The position numbers and the translations under genes are program-made. DNA of 64,000 nt from Chthoniobacter flavus (lineage in GTDB: Bacteria > Verrucomicrobiota > Verrucomicrobiia > Chthoniobacterales > JACTMZ01): the NCBI GenBank assembly GCA_945871065.1, contig CAMBUL010000002.1:15758-79757 (forward strand), written 5' to 3'. Numbering within the stretch: position 1 is the stretch's first letter; each line of letters begins with the position of its first letter. Positions 30,243 to 38,472 of the stretch are shown piece after piece. The notes beneath the pieces were generated by a model. The model did no database searches. It saw only the letters and a list, made by a program, of their open reading frames with translations, and was not told the origin of the DNA.

Positions 30243-30308
30243 TGTAGCGGCGGTCTATGACCGCCGGAGCATTTGGAAAGGCAGCGACGGTCATAGACCG
30301 CCGCTACA
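30243..30308. repeat. nested palindrome (REP-like hairpin); probable terminator of the desaturase gene
   Basis: Perfect 21-bp arms: tgtagcggcggtctatgaccg (30243-30263) and cggtcatagaccgccgctaca (30288-30308), separated by a 24-nt loop. The left arm is itself a perfect mini-hairpin (cggcggtc-tat-gaccgccg) and the right arm a near-perfect one. Begins 11 nt after the stop codon. Confidence 0.8.
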
Positions 30309-31595: not shown

Positions 31596-32392
31596 ACTCT
31601 TGCTTCTACGAGTGCGACGTCTTCCACCGGCGCCTGCGGCCCAAGCAGCATGAGTTTCTTTACCGCGTGTTTTATTTCTACCTCGATCTCGCCGAGTTGG
31701 ACATCGTGGCACGGAAGCTGAAAATTTTCGGGGTCAATCGTCCAAACATTTACAGCCTGCGCGACCGGGATCATCTGCAATACGGCCCCGGCGAGCGCCC
31801 GATCGCGGACAACGTGCGCGAGTTCCTCGAGCGCGCAGGGTGTCCGCTGGAAGAGAGCGGCGCGATCCGCATGTTCTGTTTCCCGCGGATGCTTGGTTAC
31901 ACCTTCAATCCCATCACCATTTATTTCTGCTTCCGGGCCGACGGCACCCCGCATGGGTCTGTCGTGCAGGTCGGCAACACCTTCCGCGAATTGAAGCCGT
32001 ATCTGGTGCCGCGCACGCCGGATGGCCAGTGCGACTTCGAGGTGCGGGTGCCGAAAGACTACTATGTGTCGCCGTTCAGTCCGGTCGATCTCGAGTTCCA
32101 CTTCCGCTTCCACCTGCCGGACGAAAAACTGCGGGTCTTCATTGATGACTACGATGCGGAGGGCAAAGTGCTGATCAGCACGCTGACCGGCCGGCGCAAG
32201 GAAATGACCTTGGCCAACCTCCTGGGCTTCACGGCCAGGTTTCCTTTCATCACCTTGAAGGTCATCTGGCTCATCCACTGGCAGGCGCTGCGCCTCTGGC
32301 TCAAGCGGGTGCCGTTTTTCCGGAAGGAAACCCGCGTCGAAGACCAGCGCGGGGTCTTCCGACCGCACAAGTCATTGCAAAAGAAGGTCTAA
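31592..32392 (+). CDS. DUF1365-family protein
   Basis: Begins NSCFYECDVFHRRLRPKQHEFLYRVFYFYLDL. GTG 31592 overlaps the upstream stop (GTGA). The longer ORF-track start lies inside the oxidoreductase gene. Confidence 0.82.
   Translation: MNSCFYECDVFHRRLRPKQHEFLYRVFYFYLDLAELDIVARKLKIFGVNRPNIYSLRDRDHLQYGPGERPIADNVREFLERAGCPLEESGAIRMFCFPRMLGYTFNPITIYFCFRADGTPHGSVVQVGNTFRELKPYLVPRTPDGQCDFEVRVPKDYYVSPFSPVDLEFHFRFHLPDEKLRVFIDDYDAEGKVLISTLTGRRKEMTLANLLGFTARFPFITLKVIWLIHWQALRLWLKRVPFFRKETRVEDQRGVFRPHKSLQKKV
31945..32383 (+). repeat. direct repeat copy 1 (3' part of the DUF1365 gene)
   Basis: Aligns without indels to 37282-37720 (offset 5337). About 33 mismatches by eye, concentrated in the 3' third. 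Confidence 0.9.
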
Positions 32393-32445
32393 AGTGTTAG
32401 TTGGATAAATTTGCATCTCGATGCAGATATTGTATGCTGTGATGC

Positions 32446-32685
32446 ATGAGGACCACTTTGAGCATCCACGACACGCTTTTGCACAAGGCCAAGGAGGTTT
32501 CCGCTCAGCGGAATGTTTCCGTGGGCGAATTGGTGGAGGAGGGATTGCGCGTGACCCTGGCAGCTCGGCCCAAGGCGGGGCGGGCCGCGGTTCGTCCGCT
32601 GAAGACTTTCCGCGGTGAAGGCGTCCAACCCGGGGTCGATCTGACGAATTCGGCGTCGCTGTTGGAAGCCATGGAGGGGCGGTGA
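32446..32685 (+). CDS. vapB: type II antitoxin (VapB-like, ribbon-helix-helix/DUF2191-like)
   Basis: 79 aa, MRTTLSIHDTLLHKAKEVSAQRNVSVGELVEEGLR. Stop overlaps the toxin start (GTGA). Confidence 0.8.
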   Translation: MRTTLSIHDTLLHKAKEVSAQRNVSVGELVEEGLRVTLAARPKAGRAAVRPLKTFRGEGVQPGVDLTNSASLLEAMEGR

Positions 32686-33110
32686 ATTTCGTCGATGTCA
32701 ATGTGCTCGTCGCGGCTCATCGCGAGGACACGGACAAGCACGCGGAGATCCGCGCGTGGCTCGAGGCGGAAATGGCGTCGCCGGCCGGGGTTGGGGTATC
32801 GGAGTTGGTCTTGAGTGGGTGTTTGCGCGTCATCACGCACGCCAAAATCTTCCGCCAACCCACACCTTTGTCCGCGGCGCTGGATTTTGTGGAAGACTTG
32901 CGCTCGCGCCCCGAAGTGCATGTTTTTGCACCGGGTGCCGATCACTGGAAAATTTTCGTCGATCTTTGTCGGCGATCCGACGCGCGCGGCAACTTGGTGC
33001 CCGACGCCTACCATGCGGCTCTGGCTCTTGAGTGGGGTTGTGATTGGATCACGCTCGATCGAGGGTTCGGTCGCTTCCCCGGGTTGCGCTGGCGGCATCC
33101 GTTGGATTGA
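32682..33110 (+). CDS. vapC: PIN-domain toxin VapC
   Basis: 142 aa with N-terminal FVDVNVL (acidic PIN residue) and DAYHAALALEWGCDWITLDRGF. Coupled to the upstream antitoxin. Confidence 0.85.
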   Translation: MNFVDVNVLVAAHREDTDKHAEIRAWLEAEMASPAGVGVSELVLSGCLRVITHAKIFRQPTPLSAALDFVEDLRSRPEVHVFAPGADHWKIFVDLCRRSDARGNLVPDAYHAALALEWGCDWITLDRGFGRFPGLRWRHPLD

Positions 33111-33587
33111 TCGCGGAGGTCTGCGCGTTTGAGCGCCGTGCCGTAGCCTCACCGATCCAACGGGCTGCGCACGGCCAAGCCGGGGCGGTTGAGCACGTGG
33201 AGAGCACCTGAGCCTAGGGAGGGCTCGGGGCAGGTCCCGAGCCTGCGGGACCCCATTTAACTGTAGGGTCGGCAACCTGTCCGCCGTGTGCGGATCCCCG
33301 CCGACGAATCCATGGACTCGCGGCACACCGTGCCGCGGCGAGAGATAAAATTAAAACGCTTTAAATCATGGTCGTGCTGACGTCGGAGTGTCCGAGCGAT
33401 TTCTAGTCGGGCGGCCGGGGCATATTTGTCGAGATGCACATTTGCCTGGCGCGAGAGGGAGATTCATCTCCGCTTTTTCGGTTCGAAAAAAGCCCCCGTG
33501 GCCATTTCACCGCGCTTTTTGGCCGTTTCGTCGCATTTTTGATAATTTTTATTGCGGTGTGCCGGGGGCAACCTAATTTGCGCCCGC

Positions 33588-33977
33588 ATGAAATCACTAG
33601 CCCACTCTTCCATGGTGGCGGCGCTCTTCGCCGCGGTCACCCTCACCATCCAACCCTCCGCGCAGGCTGATACCTTCGGCACAAGCGGCAACGAGTTCAC
33701 GGTTGATTTCGTTAACATCGGCAACGCGGGCAATGCGGCTGATACCACCACCTATGGCGCGGTGCCCTACGAATACCGCGCGAGCATTTACGAGATCTCC
33801 CAGGACGCCATCACCAAGGCCACGGCGAGCGGGATGGCCAACGTGACGGCTGGGCCATGGGCGGGAAGCCAGCCTGCGGCGACTATCAACTGGTACGAGG
33901 CGGCGGCCTTCGTCAATTTCCTCAACACGAACTCGGGGAAGACGGCAGCTTACAATCTGACCTTCACCACCAACTAG
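33588..33977 (+). CDS. N-terminal fragment of the FGE/SUMF1-like (C-type-lectin fold) DGR target protein, ending at in-frame TAG
   Basis: Signal peptide MKSLAHSSMVAALFAAVTLTIQPSAQA. The TAG at 33975-33977 is in the same frame as the next ORF, two codons before its ATG. Confidence 0.7.
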   Translation: MKSLAHSSMVAALFAAVTLTIQPSAQADTFGTSGNEFTVDFVNIGNAGNAADTTTYGAVPYEYRASIYEISQDAITKATASGMANVTAGPWAGSQPAATINWYEAAAFVNFLNTNSGKTAAYNLTFTTN

Positions 33978-33980
33978 AGC

Positions 33981-34529
33981 ATGGCTCTGTGGAGCAGCGA
34001 GCAGGCTTGGACGGCGGGAGGAACCAATCTTTACCGGAACAAGAACGCCTTCTATTTCCTGCCCAGCGAGAACGAATGGTACAAGGCGGCGTATTACAAC
34101 CCTGCCGGGTCGGATTATTTCCTCTATCCGACGGCGAGCAGCAGCGTCCCGACGGCGGTGGCCAGCGGGACCGATGCGGGCAGTGCGGTTTACAATGGCG
34201 TTGCCTCGATTCCGGCCATAGTGGACAGCGCTGGAGGCTTAAGCCCGTATGGAACGATGGGCCAAGGCGGCAATGTGTTTGAGTGGACTGAGAGTGCCTT
34301 TGCTGGCTCAAACAGCTCTTCGTCCGAGTCTCGCGCGATCCGCGGTGGCTCCTGGAGCGACCCCGAGTTCGCCTTGAGCTCCTCGTTCCGGCTCGACGAC
34401 GTCCCGTCGTTCGAGGACGTCAACTTCGGTTTTCGTGTCGCGAGTATCCCTGAACCCTCGACAGCAGTGTTGGTGTTGATGGCAGGAGGCGCTTGGCTGC
34501 TCAGGAAACGCTTCCGCCGTTCCCTTTGA
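33981..34529 (+). CDS. C-terminal fragment of the FGE/SUMF1-like DGR target protein, carrying the VR and a PEP-CTERM anchor
   Basis: NVFEWTES...RAIRGGSW...GFRVAS is typical of FGE-sulfatase/CLec DGR variable proteins. C-terminus IPEPSTAVLVLMAGGAWLLRKRFRR is a PEP-CTERM sorting signal. Confidence 0.8.
   Translation: MALWSSEQAWTAGGTNLYRNKNAFYFLPSENEWYKAAYYNPAGSDYFLYPTASSSVPTAVASGTDAGSAVYNGVASIPAIVDSAGGLSPYGTMGQGGNVFEWTESAFAGSNSSSSESRAIRGGSWSDPEFALSSSFRLDDVPSFEDVNFGFRVASIPEPSTAVLVLMAGGAWLLRKRFRRSL
34317..34444 (+). repeat. DGR variable repeat (VR)
   Basis: 128 bp that aligns without gaps to 34807-34934. It differs almost only where the partner has A. Confidence 0.85.
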
Positions 34530-34561
34530 TCTTTGGCCCTTTGCCCTTTTCCTCTTTGATC

Positions 34562-34584
34562 CGGGGCGGCGTGCCGCCGCCCCG
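34562..34584 (+). other. GC-rich hairpin downstream of the VR/target gene
   Basis: cggggcggcg-tgc-cgccgccccg: 10-bp stem, 3-nt loop, 33 nt after the stop codon. Confidence 0.7.
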
Positions 34585-34594
34585 ACCACAGGAA

Positions 34595-34619
34595 GCCGCG
34601 AAGCGGTCTAATTTTTTTT
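34595..34619 (+). terminator. putative intrinsic terminator of the target gene
   Basis: Short stem gccgc-gaa-gcggt followed by a T8 run (34612-34619). Confidence 0.5.
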
Positions 34620-34630
34620 GAGCATTTGCC

Positions 34631-34942
34631 GTGTCCCGCGAGGAACTACCGAAAGCGCTGGCGACATGGTATGACTACACGAAGTGGGTGTTGGATCGTG
34701 TGGATGGATTTCCCAAGAATCAGCGTTTCGTCTTGGGCACGCGCAAAGTTGGCGCTTGCGCACGGCCGTGCTGTGGCGATAACCCATCTATCGGGCACCC
34801 GGTCCGAAAACGTCCGAGAATCGCGCGATCCGCGGTGGCAACTGGAACAACACCGAGAACAACTTGCGCTCCTCGAACCGGAACAACAACGACCCGACGA
34901 ACGAGAACAACCACATCGGTTTTCGTGTCGCGAGGCCCATGA
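34631..34942 (+). pseudogene. avd: truncated avd (DGR accessory variability determinant) stub; the frame runs on through the TR
   Basis: First ~45 codons (LPKALATWYDYTKWVLDRVDGFPKNQRFVLGTR) fit the Avd/four-helix-bundle N-terminal pattern. Similarity is then lost, and the stub is about 70 codons short of a full Avd before the TR begins. Confidence 0.6.
34807..34934 (+). repeat. DGR template repeat (TR)
   Basis: In the VR frame it reads KTSENRAIRGGNWNNTENNLRSSNRNNNDPTNENNHIGFRVAR, with 12 AAC codons. Non-coding location downstream of the avd stub. Confidence 0.85.
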
Positions 34943-35289
34943 GCGCGCCGCTGGTCCCAGCCAAGCGGCGTGATGCGGCAAAAGTTGCCGGCCAGAACTA
35001 CCGCCTTCCTCCGGAGGCCGCAGCCGTGCCGGGTTCAGGGACCACCGGGGAGTCCAGGGCGCGGGGAGGGCCGAGAGGCCGCGCCCCGCGGACGAAGCAG
35101 ACGCGCCCCGCTGCGGCCGGTAGGAAACGAAAACCGTGGCGGGGCATTTGCTCGTTTGGCAAGATATCGTGAAACTGCTCAATCATGCCATGGAGTGAAC
35201 GCGCCACCGCGCGTCACTCAGGGCGGACGTTCGGCGAATGGCCATTGAATTGAGGCCGATTCGATGGTCTGCAAATACCCACGAGCACG

Positions 35290-35500
35290 TTGACCCCTTC
35301 TGGCGTCCTCAGTTTGAGTGTCGCGGAGCGAATCCAGCTTGTTGAAGATATCTGGGATACCATCGTAGGTGCCAGACGAGGTGGGTTTGACGGATTTGCA
35401 GAAGGCGGAGATCGATCGTCGATTGGATGCTTATCATCGTAGCCCCGAGGAAGGTTCTCCGTGGGATATGGTCAGGGAGCGGATCCTCAGTAGACAATGA
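35290..35500 (+). pseudogene. frameshifted antitoxin (putative addiction-module component family)
   Basis: Frame 1 reads LSVAERIQLVEDIWDTIV, then runs to a TAG. The expected continuation PDEVGLTDLQKAEIDRRLDAYHRSPEEGSPWDMVRERILSRQ is in another frame. Its stop overlaps the toxin ATG. Confidence 0.6.
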
Positions 35501-35793
35501 TCCGTCGGCTCGTCATCCGCCCGGAAGCCGAGGCGGAGATGACCGAAGCTTTCGACTGGTATGAAGAGCGACTTCCCGGGTTGGGAGCTTCCTTTTTGCT
35601 TTGTGTTGATGCGGTTTTCCGCGGCATCGTCCGTGACTCGGAGCGTTGGCCTCGTATCCATCGCGAAGCGTGACGTGCTCTGACGCGCCGGTTTCCCTAC
35701 GAGGTCTTCTTCGTGGAGGACGAGGAACGTGTTGTCGTTCTGTCCGTATTCCACGCCAAACGGAATCCGAAGAGCTGGCGGGAGAGAGTTTGA
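35497..35793 (+). pseudogene. ParE/RelE-family toxin interrupted by an in-frame TGA
   Basis: MIRRLVIRPEAEAEMTEAFDWYEERLPGLGASF...IHREA, then TGA (35671-35673), then RALTRRFPYEVFFVEDEERVVVLSVFHAKRNP, all in one frame. Confidence 0.65.
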
Positions 35794-35895
35794 AAGGCGG
35801 ACAAAAACATGAGCCGAAAACCGCTAACCAGTCGGACCAGCCAACCTCGCTGTGCTCGCCGGCTGTCCTCGAGCGTTCGCGTAAAAATACGCGCC

Positions 35896-35924
35896 TTGAC
35901 ATGGATGCCGTATAGGCATACAAA
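35896..35924 (+). promoter_or_regulatory. candidate sigma70-type promoter of brnTA with embedded inverted repeat
   Basis: TTGACA (35896-35901), 17-nt spacer, TACAAA (35919-35924). The spacer contains atgcc-gtata-ggcat. ATG lies at 35931. Confidence 0.35.
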
Positions 35925-35930
35925 TCAAAG

Positions 35931-36206
35931 ATGATCTTCGACTGGGATCCAGAGAAGAATGAAAAAATCAAGAGAGAGCGAGGGATCTCTTTTGAGGAAA
36001 TCGCTCTACTGCTTGGTGCCGGGAGTGTCTGGGCAGTCACAAAACACTGGAATACGGAAAAATATCCCAACCAAAGGATTTTTCTCATTCCCATCGATGG
36101 CCGCATTATGGCGGTTCCATTTGTCCAAGATAAGGACCGGTTTTTTCTGAAGACTGCTTTCCCCTCAAAAAAGATGACAAAACTCTACAACGAGGAGCAA
36201 AAATGA
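35931..36206 (+). CDS. brnT: BrnT-family (DUF497-like) toxin
   Basis: 91 aa, IFDWDPEKNEKIKRERGISFEEIA. Toxin-first order and an ATGA overlap with the next gene. Confidence 0.75.
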   Translation: MIFDWDPEKNEKIKRERGISFEEIALLLGAGSVWAVTKHWNTEKYPNQRIFLIPIDGRIMAVPFVQDKDRFFLKTAFPSKKMTKLYNEEQK

Positions 36207-36478
36207 AACAAACCACTGAAGCAGAAGAAAAGGAAATCGCAGACGCCCTTGAGCGCGGAGATATCGAGCTGGAGAAACCATCCCGCAAACTCCTCTCCGA
36301 TTTGAAGCGGGCATCGGAAAATACGTTCAAGAAGGACAGAAGGATCAACGTGCGCCTGAGCAGTCATGATTTGCTTGGCATCCAGAGAAAGGCCCTCAAA
36401 AAAGGTCTTCCCTACCAAGCACTGATTTCCGGTTTGATCCACCAATATGTTGAGGGAGAACTCTTGGAAAAAACATAA
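36203..36478 (+). CDS. brnA: BrnA-family antitoxin
   Basis: 91 aa. C-terminal INVRLSSHDLLGIQRKALKKGLPYQALISGLIHQYV matches the BrnA/CopG-like pattern. Confidence 0.75.
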   Translation: MKQTTEAEEKEIADALERGDIELEKPSRKLLSDLKRASENTFKKDRRINVRLSSHDLLGIQRKALKKGLPYQALISGLIHQYVEGELLEKT

Positions 36479-36642
36479 TGCGAACAGACCGATGGACCTA
36501 ACTGCCACGCCTGAAGTGGCACTTTTGGCGCGTCGCCTGCGTAGCAGGCTTTGGTCACAAAACCGAGTAACAGCAGGTCATCGGAGACGTTCGGTCACAA
36601 AAATTACTTGCTCTGCACACCCTTCATGTGTAGGATTCATGT

Positions 36643-36849
36643 GTGGCAACGAATTTACAGATAGACCAATCACTGCTTGAGCAAGCGAAATCGTTGGCAG
36701 GCTTTCCCACGAAGCGTGAAACCGTGAACGAAGCCCTTAAAGAGTTCATTCAGAGTCGCCTCCGCCGACAACTTTTGCAACTTCGAGGGCAAATCGAGTA
36801 TTTCGAGGACTACGATTACAAGGCTCTGCGCCGAGTGAAGAATCTATGA
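36643..36849 (+). CDS. vapB: VapB-family antitoxin (paralog of 37823-38023)
   Basis: 68 aa, MATNLQIDQSLLEQAKSLAGFPTKRETVNEALKEFI. GTG start. Overlaps the vapC start. Confidence 0.8.
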   Translation: MATNLQIDQSLLEQAKSLAGFPTKRETVNEALKEFIQSRLRRQLLQLRGQIEYFEDYDYKALRRVKNL

Positions 36850-37244
36850 TTGCTTGTGACACTTCAGCGTTATCTCAGTTCCTCAGACGTTCCCCGGACA
36901 CTCAAAATGATGTTGCACTTAAGGTAGAGAAATTGATCGACTCAAATGAATTGGCACTCTTTGGAATCGTTCGCCAAGAGCTTCTTTCTGGGGTCAAGTT
37001 ACCCGCTCACTTTGAGCGTATCGATCTGACCACTCAGGCACTTCCTCTGTTTTTTGCGGACGACGAAGATCATACGACAGCAGCAAGATTTTTTAACACT
37101 TGTCGCGCGAAAGGTATTCAAGGTTCCCCCATTGACTTTCTGATCTGTGCGATGGCTGTTAAGCGAAAGTTTCGTATTTATACGACCGATCCAGATTTCG
37201 AGTTGTATGAACCTATCATACCCATCGAGCTCTATCGCCCGTAA
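36846..37244 (+). CDS. vapC: PIN-domain toxin VapC (paralog of 38020-38472)
   Basis: 132 aa with IACDTSAL, CRAKGIQGSPIDFLICAMAV, IYTTDPDF. Confidence 0.85.
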   Translation: MIACDTSALSQFLRRSPDTQNDVALKVEKLIDSNELALFGIVRQELLSGVKLPAHFERIDLTTQALPLFFADDEDHTTAARFFNTCRAKGIQGSPIDFLICAMAVKRKFRIYTTDPDFELYEPIIPIELYRP

Positions 37245-37267
37245 GACCGAACAAAGCGCTGCACCGA

Positions 37268-37723
37268 ATGGCTACCCGCGCCACCCCGCAGGCGTCGGTC
37301 GTGCAGGTGGGCAACACCTTCCGCGAATTGAAGCCGTATCTGGTGCCGCGCACGCCGGATGGCCAGTGCGACTTCGAGGTGCGGGTGCCGAAGGACTACT
37401 ATGTGTCGCCGTTCAGTCCGGTGGATCTCGACTTCCACTTCCGCTTCCACCTGCCAGACGAAAAACTGCGGGTCTTCATTGATGACTACGATGCGGAGGG
37501 CAATGTGCTGATCAGCACGTTGACCGGCCGGCGCAAGGAAATGACCTTCGCCAACCTCCTCGGTTTCACGGTCAGGTTTCCCTTCATCACGCTCAAGGTC
37601 ATCGGCCTCATCCACTGGCAGGCCTTCCGCCTCTGGCTCAAACGCGTGCCGTTTTTCCGAAAAGAGGCACGCGCCGAAGACCAGCGCGGTGTGTTCCGTC
37701 CGCACAAGTCTTTGCAGAAGTAG
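37268..37723 (+). pseudogene. 3' fragment of a second DUF1365 gene copy (direct repeat copy 2 at 37282-37720)
   Basis: Translation VVQVGNTFRELKPYLVPRTPDGQCDFEVRVPKDYYVSPFSPVDL... parallels residues of the intact gene at 31592-32392. It lacks the N-terminal ~115 codons. Confidence 0.8.
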
Positions 37724-37780
37724 CTTTTCCAAGCTTGGTTGCCCGCAGAGAGGACGCGGTCGGTCTTCCGAATCCATTGA

Positions 37781-37802: not shown

Positions 37803-37822
37803 ACTGTGTGTGGGATCGAACT

Positions 37823-38023
37823 ATGGCGACGAATCTACAACTTGACGATCGGCTGATCACAGAGGCCACGGCCCTGGGAAAACACCGCACCAAGAAAGAG
37901 GCGGTCACCCGCGCCCTCACGGACTACATCAGCCACTTGCGACAGGATCGCATCTTGGACCTTTTCGGGAAGGTCGAGTTCGACCCTGCCTACGACTACA
38001 AACGCCAGCGGGCGCGGGCTTGA
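37823..38023 (+). CDS. vapB: VapB-family antitoxin
   Basis: MATNLQLDDRLITEATALGKHRTKKEAVTRALTDYI. ATG 37823 preferred over ORF-track start 37808. Overlaps the vapC start. Confidence 0.8.
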   Translation: MATNLQLDDRLITEATALGKHRTKKEAVTRALTDYISHLRQDRILDLFGKVEFDPAYDYKRQRARA

Positions 38024-38472
38024 GGGCGCTCGTCGATACGAGCGTCTGGTCGTTGGCCTTACGGCGTGACGATGGACAGCAGCATCCGGAGAGGGAGGAA
38101 TTGCGGCGGCTCGTGTCCGCCCATGTCGCCGAGATCGTCGGCCCCATCCGCCAGGAAATTCTCTCCGGTGTGCGGGATCGGGTGCAGTTCGCGCGTTTGG
38201 AAACCCACCTCGCGGCATTCCCCGATATTCCGCTCCTGACGGAAGATTACGTGACGGCCGCGAAGTTTTTCAATGTGTGCCGGTCGAAGGGCATTCAGGG
38301 GTCGAACACCGACTTCCTCATTTGCGCAGTGGCTGTCCGGTGCGACTTGGTCATCTTCACAACGGACGGGGATTTCAGGCACTTCGCAAAGTTCTTGCCC
38401 ATCGTGCTGCACGAGGCCAAAAAACCGACGCCCTCACGGCAACGTCGCTCACCCCCGAGACGCGAGGCCTGA
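38020..38472 (+). CDS. vapC: PIN-domain toxin VapC
   Basis: 150 aa with LVDTSVW, CRSKGIQGSNTDFLICAVAV, IFTTDGDF. Confidence 0.85.
   Translation: MRALVDTSVWSLALRRDDGQQHPEREELRRLVSAHVAEIVGPIRQEILSGVRDRVQFARLETHLAAFPDIPLLTEDYVTAAKFFNVCRSKGIQGSNTDFLICAVAVRCDLVIFTTDGDFRHFAKFLPIVLHEAKKPTPSRQRRSPPRREA

Follow-up and report, generated by a model that had tools for sequence, protein, structure and literature searches.

A repeat pair in Chthoniobacter flavus very probably marks the relic of a chromosomal diversity-generating retroelement

Is a gene whose 3' end recurs a few hundred base pairs downstream as an adenine-rich, inexact copy still being rewritten by a diversity-generating retroelement (DGR), or does it only preserve the trace of an element that has died? 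We address this question for a locus of Chthoniobacter flavus, analysed within a stretch of 64,000 nucleotides of contig CAMBUL010000002.1 (hereafter the window). An earlier note on this DNA had interpreted the two copies as the variable repeat (VR) and the template repeat (TR) of a DGR that acts on an FGE-like open reading frame (ORF). Our results support the pair as a true VR/TR pair of a DGR. The locus as a whole is in all likelihood the relic of a chromosomal DGR of the architecture target-avd-RT-TR (RT, reverse transcriptase), with the local copy defunct. The coordinates of all features are collected in Table 1.

Table 1. Features of the locus in window coordinates. L009, L010 and L011 denote related loci described in the text; IMH, initiation of mutagenic homing.
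Feature	Position	Strand	Description	Basis
DGR target gene, now a pseudogene	33588-34529	+	Sec signal peptide (MKSLAHSS...PSAQA), FGE-sulfatase/C-type-lectin-like domain, PEP-CTERM sorting signal	
In-frame TAG stop (TGG to TAG)	33975-33977	+	splits the gene into pieces of 129 and 182 codons	
Variable repeat (VR)	34317-34444 (solid core 34321-34444)	+	codes for the last 42 residues of the lectin-like domain, to GFRVAS	
Candidate IMH-like 3' end of the VR/TR homology	34425-34444	+		alignment
GC hairpin	34562-34584	+	10-bp stem, 3-nt loop (CGGGGCGGCG-TGC-CGCCGCCCCG)	DNA fold
avd remnant	34631-34744	+	first 38 codons only (MSREELPKALATWYDYTKWVLDRVDGFPKNQRFVLGTR)	tblastn, NF033474
Deletion junction	34737-34744	+	microhomology GCACGCGC (7-8 nt)	window vs intact L009, L010, L011
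RT remnant	34738-34782	+	last 14 codons (HAQSWRLRTAVLWR) and TAA stop	tblastn, sequence comparison
Template repeat (TR), non-coding	34807-34934	+	12 AAC codons in the target frame; lineage-specific A-to-C at 34912 (AAC to CAC)	
Conserved non-coding region downstream of the TR	34935-35215	+	includes the invariant block GCCGGGTTCAGGGACCACCGGG	conservation in relatives

The repeat pair and its target gene

We compared the two copies at their constant offset of 490 nt, which requires no indels and yields 31 mismatches among the 128 positions. For 29 of them, the downstream copy carries an A that is replaced in the coding copy by T (16), G (7) or C (6). The remaining two show a C in the TR and an A in the VR (34377/34867 and 34422/34912). 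That is, 29/40 adenines of the TR are changed compared to 2/88 non-adenines (Fisher's exact test, p = 1.8e-17). This fixed-offset alignment reproduces exactly the geometry and the counts of the earlier note, and tabulating the mismatches by template base shows them to be confined to A bar these two, i.e., they are not spread over all four bases. Each of the 27 mismatches within the core 34322-34444 affects the first or second position of a codon in the ORF frame; the other four are located inside 34317-34321 and hence outside the core used for this tally. The in-frame translations of the two copies (SSSESRAIRGGSWSDPEFALSSSFRLDDVPSFEDVNFGFRVAS and KTSENRAIRGGNWNNTENNLRSSNRNNNDPTNENNHIGFRVAR) as well as the 12 AAC codons of the template also agree exactly with what had been quoted before.

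The boundaries of the pair needed a slight revision. An independent repeat search finds the same pair at 34321-34444 and 34811-34934 (78% identity), and firm homology sets in at about 34321-34322. The repeat that the earlier note had placed at 34317-34444 is real, while its first 4-5 positions belong to a frayed 5' edge, such that the homology spans 124-128 nt only. At the 3' end, VR (34425-34444) and TR (34916-34934) share the identical, A-poor sequence TCGGTTTTCGTGTCGCGAG of 19-20 nt, after which both copies diverge abruptly and completely. By analogy with the Bordetella model (PMC3240598), this shared end is a candidate IMH-like initiation end.

The target gene is recognizable once its internal stop codon is read through. 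The respective product matches the Pfam family PF03781 (FGE-sulfatase) with E=4.8e-15 over a range that spans the VR, and its C-terminus scores 24.3 bits for the PEP-CTERM model TIGR02595 (cutoff 16), with PEP motif, hydrophobic helix and basic tail in the sequence IPEPSTAVLVLMAGGAWLLRKRFRR. Based on these sequence matches, an FGE/C-type-lectin-type scaffold is supported for the target. The structures of EgtB and SUMF2 show weak sequence matches to the protein. An AlphaFold2 run on a 73-sequence alignment gave an unusable model (mean predicted local distance difference test, pLDDT, of 33; predicted template modelling score, pTM, of 0.18), the homologues being too alike. The FGE-like nature of the ORF thus stands as claimed by the earlier note, which had, however, missed the in-frame TAG. 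In the column of this stop codon, 13/13 aligned homologues carry a tryptophan, which is nearly invariant in the family. The closest relative, a locus with intact target gene (L002), reads TGG, with G at 33976. The TAG is found in five other assemblies (L013-L017), for which reason we reject a sequencing error as its source.

The protein belongs to a large family. A database search at E<=1e-5 yields more than 7,400 homologues, which are about 313 aa long and align over their full length; among the best 120, lengths are about 300-340 aa and identities 75-86%, and one is assigned to Chthoniobacterales by its source. In the amino-acid alignment of 73 homologues, each position corresponding to a template AAC codon shows an entropy of about 3 bits. 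Where the first two codon positions lack an A, the entropy almost always stays at or below 0.5 bits, and the remainder of the protein averages 0.38 bits. The same dependency on the template manifests in homologues that are not linked to the locus, i.e., when we compare VRs from L001 and L003 with the TR of the window, 23/26, 22/30 and 25/29 mismatches are at A. From these VRs and the entropy profile, we conclude that, in many genomes, a conserved TR drives the diversification of the target family. Together with the A-specific spectrum, the FGE-sulfatase domain, an Avd remnant between the repeats and the cassettes of relatives, both presented below, the entropy profile corroborates the reading of the pair as VR and TR of a DGR.

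Remnants of avd and RT

To interpret the sequence between the repeats, we use related loci as reference. A scan of public collections with the TR pattern recovered seven contigs; in the genome collection, the pattern has a single match, namely the 2-kb contig L006 of an uncultured Chthoniobacterales. An intact cassette is present in L009, where the target 3' end with its VR is followed by Avd (121 aa, Pfam bAvd, 83.8 bits for NF033474 at a cutoff of 80), the RT (346 aa, RVT_1, DGR-typical motifs LPIGNLTSQ and YVRYVDD) and the TR, and where 23/24 VR/TR mismatches are at A. The order avd-RT-TR is the same in L010, whose intact Avd also passes NF033474, and in L008, while in L006 and L011 the C-terminus of an RT is directly followed by the TR. 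This order of the relatives (target-avd-RT-TR) is the architecture B2 of Wu et al. 2018 (PMC5758913). The window resembles such B2 cassettes, as represented by L009, L010 and L008, in that both cassette ends are retained. It differs from them in that avd codons 39-121 and RT codons 1 to ~332, i.e., about 1.27 kb, are missing and in that it is not functional.

What is left in the window is the order target, avd stub, RT stub and TR. Using the intact 121-aa Avd of L009 as tblastn query, aa 3-38 match 34637-34744 with 94% identity (E=1.5e-20), and the NF033474 profile (DivGenRetAVD) matches the window ORF starting at 34631 over profile positions 5-32 of 104 (E=0.002). For the RT of L009, aa 333-344 match 34738-34773, with the stop codon at 34780-34782. 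Both remnants meet at GCACGCGC, which is common to avd codons 36-38 (GGCACGCGG in L010) and to RT codons ~333-335 (GAGCACGCGCAAAG in L009). Since one copy of the microhomology lies in avd and another close to the 3' end of the RT gene, we conclude that the missing part was lost by a deletion between the two 7-8 nt copies.

Beyond the two stubs, tblastn with the L009 proteins finds no further RT or Avd match in the 64-kb window, and a scan of the 64 kb for the motifs YxDD and IGNLTSQ reveals no RT. That is, the TR is not accompanied by a DGR-clade RT within 64 kb, and of the accessory Avd codons 1-38 of about 121 are left. Avd is present in about 74% of DGRs.

The question arises whether the missing RT and the stop codon could be artefacts of assembly or sequencing, such that the DGR would be intact in the real genome. 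Repeats in DGR loci can indeed mislead assemblers. On the other hand, the junction is located at a microhomology outside the VR/TR repeat, and the same junction is found in L002, L007, L012, L013, L014 and L016, i.e., in six other loci or assemblies from several samples and assemblers. The junction is thus no misassembly, and given that also the TAG recurs in L013-L017, again across different samples and assemblers, we consider an artefact very improbable.

A frozen VR and its competing explanations

We next consider whether the VR has changed since the enzymes were lost. For this, L013-L016 provide other metagenome assemblies of the window locus and L002 a 97%-identical relative. The VR is 100% identical to that of the window in L002, L013, L014, L015 and L016, and so is the TR in L002, L013, L014 and L016. 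The surrounding sequence has diverged: L013 differs from the window by 50 substitutions in 1.1 kb (4.4%) of the gene left of the islet that harbours the locus. Inside the islet, only 2 sites differ in 3.7 kb, which suggests, as far as sequence comparison tells, that the islet has spread recently between diverged strains. With regard to L002, the divergence is about 15% over 33400-34308, a stretch that comprises the promoter together with the first two-thirds of the target gene. The last difference is at 34308, 9 bp before the VR, and 34309-35300 is 100% identical. Such a mosaic pattern suggests gene conversion among paralogues of the target family. Since the VR is invariant despite the divergence of the flanks, there is no sign of retrohoming since the lineages separated. 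The earlier note had proposed to compare the VR among sister strains; in the sister assemblies, it turns out to be base-for-base identical. Its claim of mutagenic retrohoming therefore holds for past events, which the repeats record, and not for the present state, in which the deletion has taken the RT along with most of avd, the target has become a pseudogene and strains do not differ in their VR.

Signs of decay are also visible in the few mismatches that are not at template A. In the column of 34912, the TRs of five other loci have an A, such that the CAC of the window is a later A-to-C mutation of the TR; the respective codon is maximally variable in the family (3.29 bits). The column of 34867 shows C in all TRs, and the A at 34377 in the VR stems from either a point mutation or recombination. 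Counted against the own TR, there are 5 non-A mismatches in the RT-less loci L007/L012 compared to 1 in the intact L009. These counts fit with decay, as judged by sequence.

By homology to the DGRs of Bordetella, Legionella and Treponema (PMC5758913, PMC3240598, PMC6182149), we infer the following mechanism and order of events. In the intact state, RT and Avd would have copied the TR RNA into cDNA while misincorporating opposite template A, and this cDNA would then have been substituted for the VR at the gene's 3' end, with the A-poor end common to both repeats as its starting point. As an outcome, about 20 residues would have been randomised on the face by which a secreted FGE/C-type-lectin-like protein with PEP-CTERM anchor binds its ligand. 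The death of the element would have begun with the ~1.27 kb deletion at GCACGCGC in an ancestor of the locus, by which retrohoming was lost in cis. From then on, the VR would have been frozen; the TR would have gained its A-to-C change at 34912, and the target gene of the window lineage its TGG-to-TAG nonsense mutation.

Some observations weigh against a dead locus. The window makes 64 kb of the genome visible, and a second intact DGR with a near-identical TR elsewhere could act in trans. The targets of L001 and L003-L005 have neither TR nor RT within 10 kb, yet their VRs are adenine-diversified, i.e., remote targeting appears to be normal in this clade. Furthermore, assembled consensus sequences are blind to VR variants of low frequency within a population, and the ENA accessions of four assemblies are consecutive, such that these four may not be independent. 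Finally, L007/L012 share the deletion junction of the window while carrying a different VR with 29 differences, 23 of them at template A, which taken alone could be a diversification after the deletion.

The last case deserves a closer look. Compared to the window, L007/L012 are about 20% divergent in the PEP-CTERM tail, about 5% in the region of 34198-34316 and about 1.7% downstream of the stop codon. They lack an equivalent of 33450-34198, i.e., most of the target gene, and their TR has a point mutation of its own, with G in place of A in the column of 34883. Since the differences reach the PEP-CTERM tail, which retrohoming cannot change, we prefer gene conversion from one of the many paralogues, a single tract of which would account for the whole pattern. 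The VR of L007/L012 as a proof of trans-diversification after the deletion is accordingly not preferred, given that the differences extend into this tail as well as upstream of the VR. From its sequence, L007/L012 is best described as a further decay stage of the same relic.

Given these data, the locus might still be a live target whose VR is diversified in trans by an intact avd-RT elsewhere, either via a near-identical TR of its own or via the local orphan TR. Such a scenario would agree with the many homologous targets that show A-specific variation relative to the window TR without any RT or TR nearby, with remote DGR targets documented elsewhere (PMC5758913), with the diversified VR of L007/L012 and with a TR and downstream conserved region that are still well kept. 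We nevertheless regard it as unlikely, because all six assemblies of the locus agree in their VR despite the divergence of the flanks, because VR and TR hold non-A mismatches that an active system would erase, because the target is a pseudogene in the window, and because the divergence pattern of L007/L012 is more readily explained by gene conversion with a paralogue as donor than by retrohoming. A related scenario, to which we give slightly less credit still, is that RT-less satellite modules (target, avd stub, TR and downstream RNA element) are maintained in Chthoniobacterales genomes and rewritten by a master avd-RT elsewhere. It would explain how L007/L012 can share the junction with the window and at the same time have an independently A-diversified VR. 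If true, one DGR enzyme locus would serve several dispersed template/target modules.

One could also ask whether a DGR is needed at all, i.e., whether the pair arose by ordinary duplication or gene conversion of a paralogous coding sequence, with an A bias that is coincidental or compositional. The target family is large and does recombine between paralogues, as the mosaic of window and L002 illustrates. Still, the adenine specificity (see the Fisher test above) and the short extent of the homology, which is flanked by avd and RT remnants, stand against it, as do the relatives, which carry the same TR beside a DGR RT. The earlier note had considered that the second copy might be part of a paralogous coding gene; it has no upstream FGE domain and is placed in frame after the stop codon of the RT, such that this option is dismissed. 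We consider an origin by duplication hardly credible. A relic of a chromosomal DGR that lost its enzymes by deletion thus remains the by far best supported reading of the locus.

Surroundings, known systems and implications

Two non-coding elements accompany the repeats. The GC hairpin lies downstream of both the VR (by 118 bp) and the target stop codon (by 33 bp), and a terminator scan reports another small stem with a trailing T-run at 34595-34620. The hairpin is probably a transcription terminator, while a role as DGR target-recognition element is uncertain. Phage-type DGRs feature a hairpin with a 7-10 bp stem and a 4-nt GRNA loop 4-34 bp downstream of the VR (PMC3240598); a GC hairpin or cruciform with GRNA loop at 4-34 bp from the VR is absent in the window. 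The 280 nt downstream of the TR are conserved in every locus that has a TR, to 75-94% in L006, L009, L010, L011 and L012, and this region contains a 12-bp stem (CCCCGCTGCGGC...GTGGCGGGG). Given this conservation, it may be a candidate for a structured 3' part of the DGR RNA in cassettes with the TR after the RT. For the post-TR region, RNAalifold predicts 88 pairs, 10 of them with compensatory changes. With a net covariation term of +0.76 and 5 sequences only, we do not accept this structure as support for RNA conservation. Rfam, scanned with 33200-35500 at E<=1, yields no family.

The relic is part of a 4.9-kb islet (~32393-37267) that is packed with four toxin-antitoxin (TA) pairs and bracketed by a duplication of the 3' 450 bp of a DUF1365 gene (31942-32392 and 37279-37727, ~90-95% identity). 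No integrase is visible in the 4.9-kb islet. Type II TA modules are located at 32446-33110 (DUF6364/PIN), 35931-36478 (BrnT/CopG-like), 36643-37244 (VapB/PIN) and 37808-38472 (VapB/VapC). A ParD-like antitoxin (35308-35500) has a 2-bp deletion near 35366, and a ParE-like toxin (35497-35793) an in-frame TGA at 35671-35673 that is CGA in L002; both genes are intact in L002. Including the DGR target, three islet genes are thus broken in the window lineage. TA genes are also found within DGR cassettes of the relatives: a HicA/HicB pair separates avd from RT in L010, and in L006 such a pair follows the TR. L006 moreover has a Phd-like ORF whose C-terminus resembles Avd. It seems that TA modules are drawn to the DGR loci of this clade. 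Outside the islet, a near-perfect 32-nt inverted repeat (30243-30308, 88% complementary, 2-nt spacer) between a fatty-acid desaturase-like and an amine-oxidase-like gene may be a terminator or a repeat element.

The element is of a known kind, of which the window locus is a new, defunct member. With the DGR of Bordetella phage BPP-1 (mtd-avd-TR-brt), it shares the A-specific transfer from TR to VR, the AAC-rich template, the VR at the 3' end and Avd. It differs in the position of the TR, which is downstream of the RT in the window's relatives and upstream in BPP-1, in the lack of the GRNA-loop hairpin (7-10 bp, within 4-34 bp of the VR) and in a VR that runs on into a coding PEP-CTERM tail. 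Moreover, it is cellular and not phage-borne; a collection of viral contigs has no match to the TR pattern or to the conserved downstream block. The DGR of Treponema denticola diversifies TvpA targets of FGE-type C-type-lectin fold, has multiple remote targets and uses a lipoprotein anchor. By analogy, the window target would be alike in being a cell-envelope protein with the VR at the C-terminal end of an FGE-like lectin fold, and its lineage likewise has many target paralogues far from any RT; the differences are PEP-CTERM/exosortase anchoring in place of a lipoprotein and avd as accessory gene. The Legionella pneumophila DGR (LdtA) is also chromosomal, borne on a genomic island and directed at a surface-displayed protein, but its route of export and anchoring is another one and the window copy is defunct.

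For the annotation of such elements, the locus implies that a VR/TR signature alone is no proof of active hypermutation, since here the signature outlives the enzyme. RT-anchored DGR finders miss RT-less relics, and such relics could inflate or confuse counts of 'remote targets'. At the same time, the locus provides a natural example of how a DGR dies, i.e., by a microhomology deletion of avd and RT, drift of the TR and pseudogenisation of the target, with a frozen VR that is datable against strain divergence. The family to which the target belongs is very large (more than 7,400 sequences) and comprises PEP-CTERM-anchored, DGR-diversified lectin-like proteins of soil and freshwater Verrucomicrobia.

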